Both the position numbers and the translations under genes were made by a program. Below, in pieces: positions 53 to 9,242 of a stretch of DNA of 9,242 bases. The DNA is taken from the IMG/VR virus record IMGVR_UViG_2700989544_000006. One strand, 5' to 3'. This stretch comes from a virus. Taxonomy: Duplodnaviria; Heunggongvirae; Uroviricota; Caudoviricetes. Below the pieces are notes generated by a model. It had not been told where the DNA came from, did no database searches, and saw nothing but the letters and a program-made list of their open reading frames with translations. Within the stretch, counting starts at the first letter, position 1. Each line of letters opens with the position of its first letter.

Positions 53-79
53 TAAAAAAAAGGCCCGCAAAAGCGAGCC
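53..79 (-). terminator. Rho-independent terminator downstream of the tRNA-like gene
   Basis: Hairpin ggcccgc(62-68)/gcgagcc(73-79) with 4-nt loop; on the minus strand the stem pairs fully with one G-U wobble and is followed by a run of 8 T (plus-strand A run 53-60). Confidence 0.55.
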
Positions 80-93
80 AGGGAAAATAAGTG

Positions 94-169
94 TGGCGCG
101 TTGTACTGGATTCGAACCAGCGACCTGGCGATTATGCGTCGCTCGCTCTCACCACTGAGCTAAAGGGCC
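94..169 (-). tRNA. tRNA-like gene resembling tRNA-Ile2/Met (CAU anticodon), probably a pseudo-tRNA
   Basis: Minus-strand read GGCCCTT-TA-GCTCAGTGGTGAGAGC-G-AGCGA-CGCATAA-TCGCC-AGGTC-GCTGG-TTCGAAT-CCAGT-ACAACGC-G-CCA. D-arm, anticodon arm (CAT at 34-36) and T-arm (GGTTCGAATCC) are canonical. The 3' acceptor strand ACAACGC pairs with 5' GGCCCTT at only 2 of 7 positions, and position 33 is G rather than the near-universal U. Confidence 0.5.
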
Positions 170-204: not shown

Positions 205-230
205 AAATAAAAAACCCGCTCAGTGGCGGG
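205..230 (-). terminator. Rho-independent terminator after the lipoprotein gene
   Basis: Hairpin cccgc(215-219)/gcggg(226-230) with loop tcagtg; on the minus strand it is followed by a T-rich run (plus-strand aaataaaaaa, 205-214). Confidence 0.6.
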
Positions 231-309
231 TTGCTATCACAGCTATATATTTACTTATTATGCCGTTACTAACATTTATCTTCGGCATATAATCGAAAAC
301 AAGGTTTGC

Positions 310-735
310 TTAAAACTCTGCTTTCATTTTATCCGGGAATTTTTTATTTGCAGCATAATAACTACCAAGTATATAAGCGTTCATTTGCTGCTCTACATCA
401 ACCCGACATGCAGCACTAGAACAAGCACCACTGATAAGCCCAAAAGAACTCCCTTTAGCAGAGAGATCAGCTTTAATTTCCTCTACAGTGTTTTTCCCCA
501 TAGCAACTACACACCCTGTAACAATATATCTAGCCTTCACATCATCCATGCTAAGGATAGTGGTTTTCGCAATTTTGCTGTATCCATCATTTTTATAAAC
601 ATCCATGGCAAACGCACGGCAATCTGTATAATACGGACTTGCTTTAACTTGCGAATACTCAGGTAATTTCATACCTGCACAACCAACTAAACAAAAACCT
701 ATCGCTGCTATTAATACCTTTTTCATTACACTCAT
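310..735 (-). CDS. Secreted lipoprotein of unknown function (moron-like cargo gene)
   Basis: N-terminus MSVMKKVLIAAIGFCLVGCAG has a basic n-region, hydrophobic core and lipobox L-V-G-C; the mature part contains 5 further Cys. The true start may be the second ATG (MKKVL, 726). The gene is visibly AT-rich against its neighbours and is bracketed by terminator hairpins. Confidence 0.7.
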   Translation of the reverse strand: MSVMKKVLIAAIGFCLVGCAGMKLPEYSQVKASPYYTDCRAFAMDVYKNDGYSKIAKTTILSMDDVKARYIVTGCVVAMGKNTVEEIKADLSAKGSSFGLISGACSSAACRVDVEQQMNAYILGSYYAANKKFPDKMKAEF

Positions 736-883
736 AACCTAGAAGCATCATTGAACTAATTTATTAAATATTCATCGAGTTTCTGGAATACAGACGTTAC
801 CCATCTCTCCAAAATCTAAAAGATAATAAGAAAAAATGTTTAACGTACCAATCCATTTCATAGTTTCATGAGACATCAGGCAC

Positions 884-906
884 AAAAAAACCCGCTCAGC
901 GGCGGG
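884..906 (-). terminator. Rho-independent terminator (tR'-like) downstream of the Q gene
   Basis: Hairpin cccgc(891-895)/gcggg(902-906) with loop tcagcg; followed on the minus strand by 7 T (plus-strand A run 884-890). Nearly identical to the hairpin at 215-230. Confidence 0.6.
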
Positions 907-954
907 TTCTTAAATCTTATCAACGGTAGACATACAAAGCCCATCGTTGGGAAA

Positions 955-983
955 ATCTTATCCATATTTTTTGAAAAATGCAA
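955..983 (-). promoter_or_regulatory. Candidate late promoter (pR'-like) between Q and the tR'-like terminator
   Basis: Minus-strand TTGCAT (978-983), 17-nt spacer, TAAGAT (955-960). It sits about 30 nt downstream of the Q stop and about 50 nt upstream of the terminator at 884-906, matching the pR'/qut/tR' layout of lambdoid phages. Confidence 0.3.
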
Positions 984-1014: not shown

Positions 1015-1767
1015 TTATCTTGTCACTTTTCTCAATTGTGTCTCTGCATATGCTTCTTCCTGCCAGCACTTTGTAACCAGTTTATCAATGATATCTGCAT
1101 ATCCTTTGTACCACTGATAATCCGTCAGGGCAGGTACCAGCTTCTGGACATGATGCCGCGCCAGTGTGGTTGGTAAACGGCTAAACCGGTTACCATTGCA
1201 ACGCCCACAAATCTTATAAACAGGCGTACCATGAAGCCGGGTTCTTTTTTCATCCAGGACAATACCTTTACCCTTACACCCTCTGCACGCTGTGCTGACT
1301 TCTCCCTTACCATGACAATGCTGACATAGTTCCTTCACCCACTCTTCCTTGATAACAGATTCCCCGCTTCTGGAGTGTTTCACCACCTCGCGCAATACAT
1401 TATGAAATCCAGTACCAGCACAATGCTCACAGCGAGCCTTACTTGCCGCAGACCTGGAATAATCAGCAAAGGCAAAATTCACAAGGTAAGGGATGATCTG
1501 TAACCGGGTTTCTTCACTCAATTTATTCAATGTCGGGTTATCCAGTGCCATCGCGTAATTGAGCAGACCTTCAATCGCAAACTGAGGATCCTGAACACCA
1601 ACTTTTGCCAGGAATAAGGCAAAACCCAGTGGTGCTTTCGACTGCACCATCCCCTGCGCAGCAATTACATCCGTAATTGTTAAACCACCAGAGCCTGTCG
1701 CCGGTGCGTCATCACTCAGTTTTGGAGATTTTGGGGAGTAATATTTTGGTAAGGCTTCAAGGTTCAT
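1015..1767 (-). CDS. Late-gene antitermination protein Q (Q82/QuuQ-like, zinc-binding)
   Basis: 250 aa. Four CxxCxGxG-type repeats (CEHCAGTG, CQHCHGKG, CRGCKGKG, CGRCNGN) form a DnaJ-like zinc-finger cluster. It is the last early gene before the late region. RBS GGAG 7 nt upstream of the ATG. Confidence 0.7.
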   Translation of the reverse strand: MNLEALPKYYSPKSPKLSDDAPATGSGGLTITDVIAAQGMVQSKAPLGFALFLAKVGVQDPQFAIEGLLNYAMALDNPTLNKLSEETRLQIIPYLVNFAFADYSRSAASKARCEHCAGTGFHNVLREVVKHSRSGESVIKEEWVKELCQHCHGKGEVSTACRGCKGKGIVLDEKRTRLHGTPVYKICGRCNGNRFSRLPTTLARHHVQKLVPALTDYQWYKGYADIIDKLVTKCWQEEAYAETQLRKVTR

Positions 1768-3606: not shown

Positions 3607-3996
3607 TCAGGCGGCTGCACCCGCCGTTTTCTCGTACTTACTGATAGTGATCTCGACCTTCCCTTTCGGGATAACCGGTCCCCACTCCACCAGCATTCTT
3701 TTCACCTGACTGTCGTCTTCCCACACACCCGCGTGGGTCAGGGCGTCAAACAGCGCCTTGTTATAGTTGTCCAGATCGCGGATCCTGTTATCCGGAGGAA
3801 ACAACACGATCTCCACTGAAGCAGGTGCCGACGTTGGTTTCGGCAGACGACGTAACTGCTCAATGATGGCGGCACACGCCGCGCTCTGAAATTTTCGCCC
3901 CGCCTCGCTTATCAGGCTCTTACCAGCAAATGCCCCTTTGTTGGGGTGTCGCCAGTACGTGTTCACGCTGGGCGGAAAAGGCAGTATTAGCTTCAT
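3607..3996 (-). CDS. rusA: Holliday junction resolvase RusA
   Basis: 129 aa with RusA hallmarks: LPFPPSVNTYWR N-terminus, catalytic acidic cluster RIRDLDNYNKALFDALT and WEDDSQV. Its start overlaps the upstream stop (ATGA). Confidence 0.85.
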   Translation of the reverse strand: MKLILPFPPSVNTYWRHPNKGAFAGKSLISEAGRKFQSAACAAIIEQLRRLPKPTSAPASVEIVLFPPDNRIRDLDNYNKALFDALTHAGVWEDDSQVKRMLVEWGPVIPKGKVEITISKYEKTAGAAA

Positions 3997-4646
3997 GCCA
4001 CCATCTCCCTGACCAGTTTTTCCGCCTGCTGGCGAACCTGCGCCAGAAACGCCTCACCACATGCCTCAAGTTCATCGCGCCCGATGTAGCTGATTGCCGG
4101 TCCCTTCCAGGTCTTATCGAAAACAGCAATAGCACCAGCGAAGAAAGCGCCTGTCGGCACCTGCTTCTCATCCTTCGGGATAAACCAGGCAGGCAGTTCA
4201 AAACCAATACGCCCGCGAATAAAAGTAATATGGTCCGCATCTTCCGGCCACCACACTTCGCTGGTGGCAGCTTTGATCAGGAAAACATAGCGCCCACCCT
4301 TATCACGCATGGCACTGGCATGTTTCATGATGTAACGCATGCCGGTGATGTATTGCCCCTCATGCTGACTGGCGCGGCTGTATGGGGGATTACCAAAGGC
4401 AGCACCTTTAAGCTCCGCAAGACGTTCTGACCAGTCATGCGCCAGCGCGTTATCTTCCGCCGTGTAATACGCGGCACATTTGGCGTTATCACCGTCAGTA
4501 AACAGATCCAGAACAAACGGGCCAAACAGGGTGTTAATTCCCCAGAAAATGTTGTCCGGCGTGCGCCACTGATCGCCCACTTCCTTCAGTTCATGGGCTG
4601 GTTTGTTCCGCAGTTCTACCAGCGCCTGGCAATATTTATTATTCAT
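3993..4646 (-). CDS. Phage-type DNA N6-adenine methyltransferase (Dam family)
   Basis: Contains the NPPY catalytic motif (FGNPPYS) and the conserved DQWRTPDNIFW N-terminal block. Start chosen at MNNKYCQ (ATG 4644-4646) with a GGGGG RBS; the ORF track start at 4691 lacks an RBS. Confidence 0.8.
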   Translation of the reverse strand: MNNKYCQALVELRNKPAHELKEVGDQWRTPDNIFWGINTLFGPFVLDLFTDGDNAKCAAYYTAEDNALAHDWSERLAELKGAAFGNPPYSRASQHEGQYITGMRYIMKHASAMRDKGGRYVFLIKAATSEVWWPEDADHITFIRGRIGFELPAWFIPKDEKQVPTGAFFAGAIAVFDKTWKGPAISYIGRDELEACGEAFLAQVRQQAEKLVREMVA

Positions 4647-5780: not shown

Positions 5781-6970
5781 TTGCGCCCCCTTACCTCTGA
5801 AGAGTTCAGCGACGAATGAATAAGACGGGCAAGAAATGCCGCATCGTTAATTCGGTCATACAGACTTACAGCCAGCGGTGATTCAGCTTTTTCCAGCATG
5901 GGATAAAGCTGCTGCAACCAGACCTGATGAATTGATGAAATGTAGGAATAGAGAACGCTGGCGTTATGTGCAACGTCGCTCGGTACAGAGGGCTTTGAAA
6001 GCTGTTTCTCCATCTGGTTAAAGGCATTGATGTATGCCTCTTTGAACTGGGCAGCACGTTTGCCAGTGAAGCCCATTGCCAGGAACGCGAAGCCGTCGCG
6101 GGTGATGTGGTAGCAAGGAAGTTTGCGAGTACCGCCGTTGGGCTGGTGTACCAAAATTGATGTCTCCGCAAAATTGCGGGCACAAAACTCTGGAGAACAA
6201 TCCAAAATGCGGATCTTTTTCAGAACATCGTCATGACGTTTAGAGAAGAAGTCAGCAACAGCCAAAGAAGATGTAACAGCCTGACCATCAACGATGGCAA
6301 TTTCAGGTTGAGAGAGGGTTGGGAGAGTAGTCATGGTGACAGCCCCGGTAGTCAGTTTTTCAGAAAACTCACCACATGGGACGCCAATCACAGAGGTGGT
6401 GAGACGTACAGGGTTGGCGTTACCGGAGACTACCGAACCCGGCCCGACCGAAGTCGGCCCTGTACGCCCCACCATAATTTGGGCGTAGCAATGCTCATGA
6501 CACGAAAAAACCGCATGAGCGCGGTTATGCTCAGTAATCAATTTCAGGACGCCAATCCCGGCACCCGCTTTATAAGGTGCCTGAACAGTGTAACGTCCCG
6601 GAATGGCAGAATCAATGTGCTGGTGGTCCTTCACACTCAACAAAATCACGCCTGAATTTCCACAAAGGACTAAAGCACTCATGCGGGTAGTCTTTGCGAA
6701 GATAGATAACGCGCTGTGTTTCTGGCTCCCAACGAATGACTCTGACGGGCACTCCGTAGTGATCTTTGAACCAGCGGTTAACTTGTCGCAAAGGACTGTC
6801 TCCTTCTGCCGGTTGAAATCACCCACAGCCCACTCTGCAAAGCTGTGGGTTACAATTTCCCTGTCACCTGGTACATTCACTGCATAGCAATACTCCACCT
6901 TCGCTTTTCCACCCGGTACAGGAAGCGCAATCAGTTGCGAGCGACGGTAGTGTGTTGTTAAACTGTTCAT
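5777..6970 (-). CDS. Composite protein: uncharacterised N-terminal region (about 210 aa) fused to a Rha-family phage regulatory domain
   Basis: Residues about 215-320 ([33 protein letters not shown]...[31 protein letters not shown]) match the Rha domain. The upstream 212 codons are in the same frame with no stop, and the ATG at 6970 overlaps the upstream gene's stop (ATGA). Confidence 0.6.
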
Positions 6971-7807: not shown

Positions 7808-7873
7808 AATGTAGGATATCCAACATGCCAATGTCAAGAATCCTACATGGGCATGTGGTAGGATTGCCTACAT
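7808..7873. promoter_or_regulatory. Right operator region (OR) with pR-like promoter for the cro-like gene
   Basis: 18-bp near-palindromic operator ATGTAGGATATCCAACAT (7809-7826), plus related palindromic elements TCCTACATGGGCATGTGGTAGGA (7841-7863) and GTAGGATTGCCTAC (7858-7871), the last overlapping the cI start. Minus-strand promoter: -35 TTGACA (7832-7837), 18-nt spacer, -10 TACATT (7808-7813). Confidence 0.6.
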
Positions 7874-8525
7874 GATGAACATGAGTGATCGTATTCGCCA
7901 AAGGCGAAAAGAACTGAACCTGACACAACAAGCACTGGCTGATTTGACTGGTGTGAACCGTGTCACGGTTACTGGATGGGAAAAGGACGACTACCAACCA
8001 AATGGAGCCAACCTTCAAGCCCTAGCCAACGCACTTAAATGCGATCCTCTGTGGCTTGTTAGCGGAAAAGGCTCGCCTGAACCAAAGATAAATCTAAAAC
8101 CTGAAATATTCGCAGTTAAAAAAGTCCCCCTCATCTCGTGGGTTCAGGCGGGTTCATGGACAATGACGGAGCCTGGTGTCAGGAAAGAAGATGCTGAAGA
8201 GTGGGTTTATACTACCGCCCTTGTATCAGAAATGGCATTTGCACTACGGGTCCGTGGTGATTCAATGACCAATCCCCTCGGCTCACCATCGATACCAGAA
8301 GGTTCTATCGTTATCGTAGAGCCAGATATTATTGATACAGAGTGTATTAACGGAAAAATCGTTGTTGCCCATATCAATGGTGGGCAAGAAGCGACACTCA
8401 AAAAATTTGTTGAGGACTGGCCGAACAGGTATCTCGTCCCACTAAATCCTAACTATAAAACTATTGAATGCGGTGAAAACTGCAGAATAGTTGGTCTTGT
8501 CAAACAAGTAATAATGGATTTTTGA
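7872..8525 (+). CDS. CI-like prophage repressor (HTH plus S24 LexA-like autopeptidase domain)
   Basis: N-terminal XRE-type HTH (LTQQALADLTGVNRVTVTGWEKDD), candidate Ala-Gly cleavage site (VQAGSW), Ser nucleophile in RGDSM and Lys in TLKKF, the CI/LexA architecture. Start could be 7872 or 7881. Confidence 0.85.
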   Translation: MMNMSDRIRQRRKELNLTQQALADLTGVNRVTVTGWEKDDYQPNGANLQALANALKCDPLWLVSGKGSPEPKINLKPEIFAVKKVPLISWVQAGSWTMTEPGVRKEDAEEWVYTTALVSEMAFALRVRGDSMTNPLGSPSIPEGSIVIVEPDIIDTECINGKIVVAHINGGQEATLKKFVEDWPNRYLVPLNPNYKTIECGENCRIVGLVKQVIMDF

Positions 8526-8641: not shown

Positions 8642-8799
8642 TGTTTTTAGAGTTGTGGTGAATGCGCAGGCTGATGCGCGAAAGACATTGCAGCTATTGC
8701 GGAAAAGAGCTGTTCGGCGGGGCAATTAAACGCCCGTGAGAGTCTGAAATAACCGCAAGCCGGAGATCAGCACCGGTCACCACAACAGCCACTGCTTTG

Positions 8800-8845
8800 G
8801 CGGTACCAGTTTGTACACTTGCTTCCGGCTGGTACCGCTCTTTTT
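8800..8845 (+). terminator. Hairpin plus U-tract in the pL leader (candidate terminator/attenuator; overlaps a boxA-like CGCTCTTTTTA)
   Basis: Perfect 10-bp stem GCGGTACCAG (8800-8809)/CTGGTACCGC (8829-8838) with a 19-nt loop, followed by TCTTTTT (8839-8845). The sequence CGCTCTTTTTACAA (8836-8849) resembles the boxA consensus of nut/rrn antitermination sites. Confidence 0.3.
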
Positions 8846-8934
8846 ACAAAACAGAGAAGAGCATCACCGGACGACGGGCTCATAACCCAATCCATCCGGG
8901 CGGCTGCCACCGCAGGTGTTCTTCTCTGTTTTGT
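8846..8934 (+). repeat. Perfect 15-bp inverted repeat enclosing a 59-bp GC-rich core in the pL leader
   Basis: ACAAAACAGAGAAGA (8846-8860) and its exact reverse complement TCTTCTCTGTTTTGT (8920-8934), about 35 nt upstream of the RBS of the first pL-operon gene. Confidence 0.5.
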
Positions 8935-8982
8935 GGAGAAACCAACCGGCCTTGCAGGGTCGATATGATGAGGAGCAGCAAA

Positions 8983-9242
8983 ATGGCTAGCGAACGCAGT
9001 ACTGATGTGCAGGCATTTATCGGGGAGCTGGACGGCGGCGTATTTGAAACCAAAATCGGCGCAGTTCTCAGTGAAGTCGCTTCCGGTGTGATGAACACGA
9101 AAACCAAAGGTAAGGTCTCGCTCAACCTGGAAATCGAACCGTTTGATGAGAACCGTGTGAAAATCAAACACAAACTCTCATATGTTCGCCCGACTAACCG
9201 CGGGAAAATTTCCGAAGAAGACACCACCGAAACGCCGATGTA
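8983..9242 (+). CDS. Hypothetical protein, first gene of the pL-like operon (3' end outside the window)
   Basis: ATG at 8983 preceded by GAGGAG 7 nt upstream; open through the window end (MASERSTDVQAFIGELDGGVFETKIGAVLSEV...). Not in the ORF track because it has no stop in the window. It is not Arg-rich, so it does not look like lambda N. Confidence 0.55.
   Translation, partial: MASERSTDVQAFIGELDGGVFETKIGAVLSEVASGVMNTKTKGKVSLNLEIEPFDENRVKIKHKLSYVRPTNRGKISEEDTTETPM

Follow-up and report, generated by a model that had tools for sequence, protein, structure and literature searches.

The window analysed here, a stretch of 9,242 nucleotides from a tailed virus of the Caudoviricetes (IMG/VR record IMGVR_UViG_2700989544_000006), shared 99.9% identity with a prophage found in E. 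coli O157:H7 NE122 and in related STEC strains, and the element hosting the cassette described below is a lambda-like (lambdoid) E. coli prophage. Read from right to left, the window begins with cI, followed by cro, a cII-like gene, an ORF for an Ash/Rha antirepressor, a replication gene, Dam, RusA, KilA-N, DUF968 and the antiterminator gene Q, whose product matched the solved lambda Q structures 7UBM and 4MO1. The order beyond Q is the late promoter PR', a leader, a terminator hairpin (tR' copy 1), approximately 150 nt of upstream sequence, the lipoprotein gene and a second copy of the hairpin (tR' copy 2). The features on which the analysis is based are the following:

7872-8525: cI, first gene in the right-to-left reading of the window
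1015-1767: antiterminator gene Q
943-983, minus strand: predicted late promoter PR', with -35 TTGCAT at 983-978, a 17-nt spacer and -10 TAAGAT at 960-955, located by alignment with lambda
948-943, minus strand: putative pause element AACGAT, downstream of the PR' -10
884-908, minus strand: repeat copy 1, confidently assigned to tR', a hairpin followed by U7; marked as a terminator by the annotators of SfV and Ayreon; SfV and E. coli PV15-279 each have this sequence once
823-851, minus strand: predicted sigma70 promoter of the lipoprotein gene, TTGGTA-17-TATTAT, 9/12 in a consensus scan
310-735, minus strand: lipoprotein ORF, 141 aa, likely start ATG at 726
209-232, minus strand: repeat copy 2 (23/24), confidently assigned as a duplicate of tR', a hairpin with a U-run
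94-164, minus strand: chimeric pseudo-tRNA, with a 5' part like the ileZ tRNA(CAT) and a 3' part, from the T-loop on, of tRNA-Arg(TCT)
62-79, minus strand: third terminator-like hairpin of the late leader, from consensus scan and fold

Two observations concern the right half of the window. The 397-aa ORF merging the Ash and Rha domains contains sequences matching the C4 antisense RNA (82 bits) and IsrK (59 bits) at window positions 6392-6593 (minus strand), together with a weak match to the c4 target (a1b1) in the same interval, and this arrangement resembles an antirepressor immunity module in the style of P1/P7, carried by a lambdoid prophage. Immediately past cI lies the region of sRNA-17, an ArcA-modulated sRNA of 193 nt from E. 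coli K1 RS218, reported from the "1-kb intergenic region" of an mEp460-like prophage, a region defined after hypothetical genes were taken out (PMC7719688). This sRNA was considered as a possible piece of the lipoprotein mRNA and rejected, since it maps beside cI, to window positions 8652-8844 (minus strand), with an exact 61-nt match at 8778-8838 and primer sequences bounding the rest; the region overlaps mechanically listed ORFs at 8767-9171.

The late promoter and the two hairpins

PR' is located directly after the stop codon of Q on the minus strand, and its -10 element TAAGAT is followed by TTTTCC-CAACGATGGG. When the Q end and PR' were aligned with those of lambda, TAAGAT fell on the lambda -10 TAAATT, and CAACGATGGG, which is the initially transcribed sequence of lambda, was the same in both. 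The AACGAT motif is what we take to be the sigma70-dependent pause element of lambda, where Q loads. The first hairpin is situated approximately 45-63 nt past the predicted lambda-like PR' start, with the end of its U7 tract at approximately 63 nt; given this distance, the hairpin at 908-885 would terminate a short PR' leader that is made constitutively. An intrinsic terminator was thus found shortly after a pause-bearing PR' and beside the Q gene, at a site where the annotators of SfV and Ayreon also placed terminators, and from this arrangement the upstream hairpin is confidently assigned to tR', the intrinsic terminator targeted by Q antitermination. The predicted leader from PR' to tR' (window 884-948, minus strand; approximately 63 nt) should be constitutive in lysogens. 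Short PR' leaders have been described before, including the StxS sRNA of Stx phages (PMC7547250), and the leader predicted here is the counterpart of StxS and of the lambda 6S RNA.

The same hairpin recurs on the other side of the lipoprotein gene. The copies AAAAAACCCGCTCAGTGGCGGGTT at 209-232 and AAAAAACCCGCTCAGCGGCGGGTT at 885-908 shared 23 of their 24 bases, the sole difference being a loop base; when up to three mismatches were allowed, just these two 24-nt copies matched in the window, with 0 matches expected from 200 shuffles, in agreement with the original prediction that near-identical hairpins surround the gene. Each copy folds on the minus strand as AACCCGC-loop-GCGGGTT, with a G+C-rich stem of 7 bp, a loop of 6 nt and a run of U6-U7 behind it (folding energies of -15.8 and -14.1 kcal/mol; z = -3.2 and -2.7). 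The terminator consensus scan picked up only the copy at 232-213; the copy at 885-908 may have been missed because the A-run preceding it can pair with the U-run, consuming the tail that the scan rule requires. Copy 2 (209-232) is a predicted terminator of the lipoprotein transcription unit and, at the same time, a putative second terminator of the late leader.

The lipoprotein and its gene

The composition of the lipoprotein ORF differed from that of its surroundings. Its G+C content was 37.8%, and that of the cassette between the hairpins (233-884) 35.7%, with respect to 49.8% in the rest of the window, where the lowest value of any 426-nt stretch was 40.1%; likewise, GC3 was 27% in this ORF and 39-65% across the 11 other ORFs of the window. 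The windowed G+C and GC3 values therefore confirmed that the gene is compositionally distinct, and, of the earlier description of it as roughly one-third G+C, the AT-richness stood while the exact level was a slight overstatement. The ORF is under strong purifying selection (dN/dS 0.05-0.17).

Regarding its own promoter, the number of sites reaching 9/12 of the sigma70 consensus in the region equalled the chance expectation. Boxes of the form (T/C)TGGT(A/G) and TATNAT-like boxes are kept upstream of the gene in Salmonella and Hafnia cassettes, and some 150-160 nt 5' of the start codon, including the predicted -35 and -10 boxes, are homologous among the E. coli, Salmonella and Hafnia cassettes. 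Expression data for the gene were looked for and none were found; in the lysogen the gene may plausibly be transcribed from this predicted promoter.

The deduced protein has the N-terminus MKK-VLIAAIGFC-LVG-C, that is, a basic N-terminal region, a hydrophobic core and a lipobox LVGC (L16-V17-G18-C19, encoded at 690-679) ending in Cys. The lipobox Cys was invariant in the family alignment, even in a relative sharing 29-30% identity (P0015), and the lipoprotein call of the original prediction thus rests on a conserved lipobox with Cys19; we confidently assign the gene as encoding a lipoprotein precursor. In this allele, Cys15 at position -4 presumably breaks the strict PROSITE lipobox pattern; most homologues carry Ser at this position. 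The mature protein, of 122 aa, contains four further cysteines (C39, C75, C105 and C110), all of them conserved, instead of the five first counted, as C15 belongs to the signal peptide. The residue at +2 is Ala, from which the +2 (Lol sorting) rule predicts the outer membrane. The mature part, modelled with AlphaFold2 (pLDDT 87, pTM 0.83), consisted of five helices, and structure comparison showed resemblance to generic bundles only. Taken together, these features make it quite likely that the protein is lipidated at Cys19 and sorted by Lol to the outer membrane, where it would face the periplasm as a compact helical bundle with two disulfides.

The protein belongs to phrog_4748, a PHROG lacking an assigned function, and the members of its family were confined to Enterobacterales. 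Sequence and profile searches of Pfam, NCBIfam, PADLOC and PDB found no relative, the PADLOC defence models yielding 0 families at E<=1. Outside the family, neither an exhaustive profile search of 1.84 billion representatives nor a second, word-index search using a broader profile produced a match. No similarity to Bor/Iss, Cor, Llp or Ltp was detected in sequence or fold, as anticipated in the original prediction, which had not recognised the protein as Bor, Cor or Llp.

Insertion of the cassette at tR'

Comparison with related phages located the boundaries of the inserted segment. SfV has the same Q end and PR', with a single hairpin and no insert, and GTGCCTTGATGTTGGCAGTACGGTAAACACGCTGG comes next. 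In Ayreon, mEp460 and phiSTEC1575-Stx2k the cassette stands after the first hairpin, and GTACCTGTAAACTTGGTGCAGTACAGTAAACACGCTGG, closely similar to the SfV sequence, follows the second one. In the window the second hairpin is joined to another downstream module, the tRNA region, so that the hairpin also behaves as a module junction. Among complete E. coli genomes, 1,384 places with the Q-end/PR'/tR' module were found, and the cassette was present in 220 of them (~16%). The possibility that every phage with this Q inherited the segment from a common ancestor was tested and rejected. Duplication of tR' as a general trait of the site was also rejected, given that E. coli PV15-279, which has Q-PR'-tR' and other cargo in place of the cassette, carries one hairpin. 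The downstream hairpin is confidently assigned as a copy of tR'. The two hairpins had originally been described as near-identical modules bracketing the gene; they do not form a matched pair owned by the cargo, the upstream one being assigned to the phage's own tR' and the downstream one to its copy.

The segment containing the lipoprotein gene is confidently classified as a moron, namely a self-contained, horizontally mobile transcription unit of ~676 bp (209-884) located directly after tR', with tR' duplicated by the insertion. It lies between features that are adjacent in related phages (SfV and PV15-279), has a foreign composition and ends in its own predicted terminator (232-209). The moron reading proposed at the outset was therefore upheld by the absence of the segment from the SfV site and from many E. 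coli prophages sharing this Q, by its composition, by the terminator-like hairpin at its end and by the ~160 nt of upstream sequence travelling with the gene. The location had been given as between Q and a tRNA, and of this the Q side was correct and the tRNA side was not: positions 94-164 are annotated as tRNA-Met in RefSeq (PGAP), ARAGORN found no tRNA in the window, and the Rfam match covered tRNA positions 7-64 only. Aligned to the three-tRNA array of phiSTEC1575-Stx2k, the element corresponds to the first tRNA of the Stx-phage array fused to the third; its acceptor halves GGCCCTT and ACAACGC cannot pair, position 33 is G, and it is a remnant that looks non-functional. In sum, the moron and lipoprotein parts of the original prediction stand, its account of the hairpins and of the tRNA needs refinement, and the role in exclusion or virulence that it suggested is a candidate one. 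Beyond the remnant, the hairpin at 62-79 has a conserved counterpart in phiSTEC1575-Stx2k (locus L002, 3655-5601), located between the tRNA array and stx2; the window's prophage lacks stx and continues past this hairpin into a DUF6645 gene.

A duplicated terminator was also found in another genus. In a Hafnia alvei prophage (locus L017) two copies of an 80-nt sequence (3718-3797 and 4548-4627; 94% identical) stand as direct repeats on either side of the cassette. They consist of the late leader and tR'-type hairpin of the Hafnia phage itself and are an independent recurrence of the terminator duplication. Since the Hafnia repeat derives from the leader and tR' of its own phage, the repeats represent target sequence that was duplicated and not the ends of an element, and mobile-element ends or REP-like repeats were discarded as explanations of the hairpins. 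The left end of the Hafnia cassette keeps a degenerate U-run of the E. coli/Salmonella type with a GTACCTGAAAC tail; this remnant indicates that the cassette came from a phage of that type and that the terminator of the recipient was duplicated anew. The E. coli duplication of tR' spans 24-33 nt, the Hafnia one 80 nt. Integration by a single crossover of a circle carrying one repeat would fit spread among phages with the same tR', and would not fit the first capture in a new one.

These results suggest how the cassette could be expressed. In the lysogen, PR' transcripts would end at copy 1 while the gene would be read from its own promoter at 851-823, ending at copy 2, with no read-through from the moron promoter into the late genes; on balance we lean slightly towards this arrangement. 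Upon induction, Q-modified polymerase should very probably pass both copies, and the gene, as the first ORF of the late transcript, would be strongly expressed. The duplicate tR' would in this way block transcription from the cargo promoter short of the late genes (the lysis cassette lies further downstream), yet be transparent to Q-modified polymerase. The explanation as a whole, a moron that duplicates tR', is expressed from its own promoter and encodes a lipidated product protecting the envelope, is given a probability of about 0.5. An extended version of it, to which we attach little credence, would have the cassette as a unit mobilised by recombination, inserting again and again at the tR' of Q systems that are unrelated and doubling this terminator each time. 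The duplicate would insulate the lysis genes from the cargo promoter and offer direct repeats for excision and re-insertion, and the lipoprotein would found a new family of Enterobacterales proteins defending the envelope against phages or other invaders.

Homologues, possible functions and comparison with known systems

The gene was present in 215 of 5,426 complete E. coli genomes, and exact or near-identical proteins were encoded on more than 1,000 contigs in E. coli and likewise on more than 1,000 in Salmonella. In Salmonella the homologue is located directly after a lambda-type Q, of a Pfam family that differs from that of the window Q, and before the holin genes, the cassette having the same CCCGCCACTGAGCGGG hairpin in front and a diverged hairpin behind; in Hafnia it directly follows a third Q family, PF06323. 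Other locations were between the tape-measure and gpM genes in Enterobacter, beside VapBC in the early-left region of other Salmonella prophages, and, in Serratia and one other genome, an ordinary chromosomal neighbourhood free of phage genes. The homologue was also found on approximately 200 non-mobilisable plasmids of 100-120 kb, mostly from Klebsiella and also from Cronobacter, Citrobacter and Buttiauxella, which look like SSU5-type phage-plasmids. In Stx2k and some Stx2c phages the cassette is placed between Q and stx2. At all nine homologue loci examined the gene was more AT-rich than its flanks.

On these plasmids, as in examples of ~110 kb from Klebsiella and Buttiauxella, the homologue is followed 10 nt later by a second small lipoprotein gene (L005 4446-4745; L010 5434-5733), which encodes 99 aa with a lipobox LSGC and is not present in the window. 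Its product had no Pfam match and resembled the window family in the signal peptide alone.

The distribution of homologues bears on when the gene acts. A late-phase accessory gene, with no working promoter of its own, would be made only on Q antitermination and would act in lytic growth, either masking envelope components to prevent the loss of progeny on debris or influencing how the envelope breaks down. The position of the gene as first ORF past PR'/tR', the weak promoter prediction and the homologues directly behind three unrelated Q families, which suggest selection for position, are consistent with this alternative. We nevertheless consider it improbable, because homologues also occupy early-left, tail-module, plasmid and non-phage chromosomal sites with no Q-dependent transcription, because ~160 nt of upstream sequence are conserved with the gene across genera, and because the gap between Q and the lysis genes is a general cargo hot-spot, where stx, tRNAs and methylases are also found.

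With respect to what the protein does, the reading preferred here, protection of the envelope of the carrier, would have it bind an envelope component or an incoming protein exposed to the periplasm, most likely excluding phages or similar invaders. This step, the weakest of the chain, is tentative and drawn by analogy; phage exclusion is a best guess suggested by the precedents of Cor, Llp, Ltp and HK97 gp15 and by the moron-type locations of the gene. The gene was unlinked to any particular tail or receptor-binding module, which, together with its copies in non-phage chromosomal sites, weakens the case for receptor-specific exclusion of the Cor/Llp type. Less probable is an orphan immunity protein or inhibitor, a periplasmic lipoprotein that would neutralise an incoming enzyme able to degrade the envelope (for example a T6SS effector with amidase or lipase activity, a bacteriocin or a lysozyme). 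Such a role would suit a small, periplasm-facing protein with predicted disulfide bonds, encoded by a stand-alone gene that is dispersed among the phages, plasmids and chromosomal islets of weapon-carrying Enterobacterales, but none of the approximately 12 contexts inspected placed a homologue beside an effector or toxin gene, and no likeness to known immunity or inhibitor families was detected in sequence or fold. We hold it more doubtful still that the protein is a host-interaction factor of the Bor/Iss type, which would benefit the lysogen in animals through serum or stress resistance or through adhesion: the precedent of lambda Bor and the occurrence of the gene in elements of STEC, ExPEC, Salmonella and Klebsiella point in that direction, against which stand the lack of Bor/Iss similarity and the occurrence of the gene in environmental Serratia, Buttiauxella and Hafnia.

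Lipoproteins of the cell surface or periplasm are already known among prophage cargo; the protein family is one that has never been characterised, and the duplication of tR' is a modest curiosity. The gene is nonetheless common, yet annotated just as "hypothetical" and devoid of a family model. In Stx2k and some Stx2c phages, the cassette and its extra terminator stand in the path of the transcript from the late promoter to stx2, so that toxin expression could be influenced, besides the surface properties of the lysogen. Should the product prove an exclusion or immunity protein, a new family would be added, and a specific route of insertion behind the terminator duplication, if there is one, would inform how morons are acquired and kept harmless.

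Among known systems, lambda Bor and Iss are likewise small lipoprotein cargo of the prophage late region. They share no sequence or profile similarity with the protein described here, whose fold is predicted to be all-helical with two disulfides, and the site also differs, being after Q in this case and after Rz for Bor in lambda. Cor (phi80, N15 and T1) and the T5 Llp are also small outer-membrane lipoproteins of phages with disulfides, which makes a functional analogy plausible; no similarity was detected, however, and the genes for Cor and Llp are linked to receptor-binding genes, whereas the present gene lacks linkage to a tail type and also occurs outside phages. The superinfection-exclusion protein Ltp of Streptococcus phage is likewise a lipoprotein of ~140 aa; its mature part is helical, as is predicted for the present protein, and Ltp is expressed from the prophage. 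The cargo that Stx phages carry between Q/tR' and the lysis genes occupies the same slot and is read by the Q-modified polymerase; in contrast to stx, the product here is a lipoprotein and not a toxin, and the cassette brings a second tR'. Finally, the morons of lambdoid phages (HK97 and HK022, e.g. gp15) are likewise extra transcription units between features that are adjacent in a relative, and are alike in their atypical composition, the terminator at the end, the predicted promoter at the start and the several classic slots occupied among homologues. With respect to the gp15 moron of HK97, whose product we take to be an inner-membrane protein and not a lipoprotein, the proteins are unrelated, and the insert described here sits inside a leader under Q control, bordered by a duplicate of the phage's own tR'.
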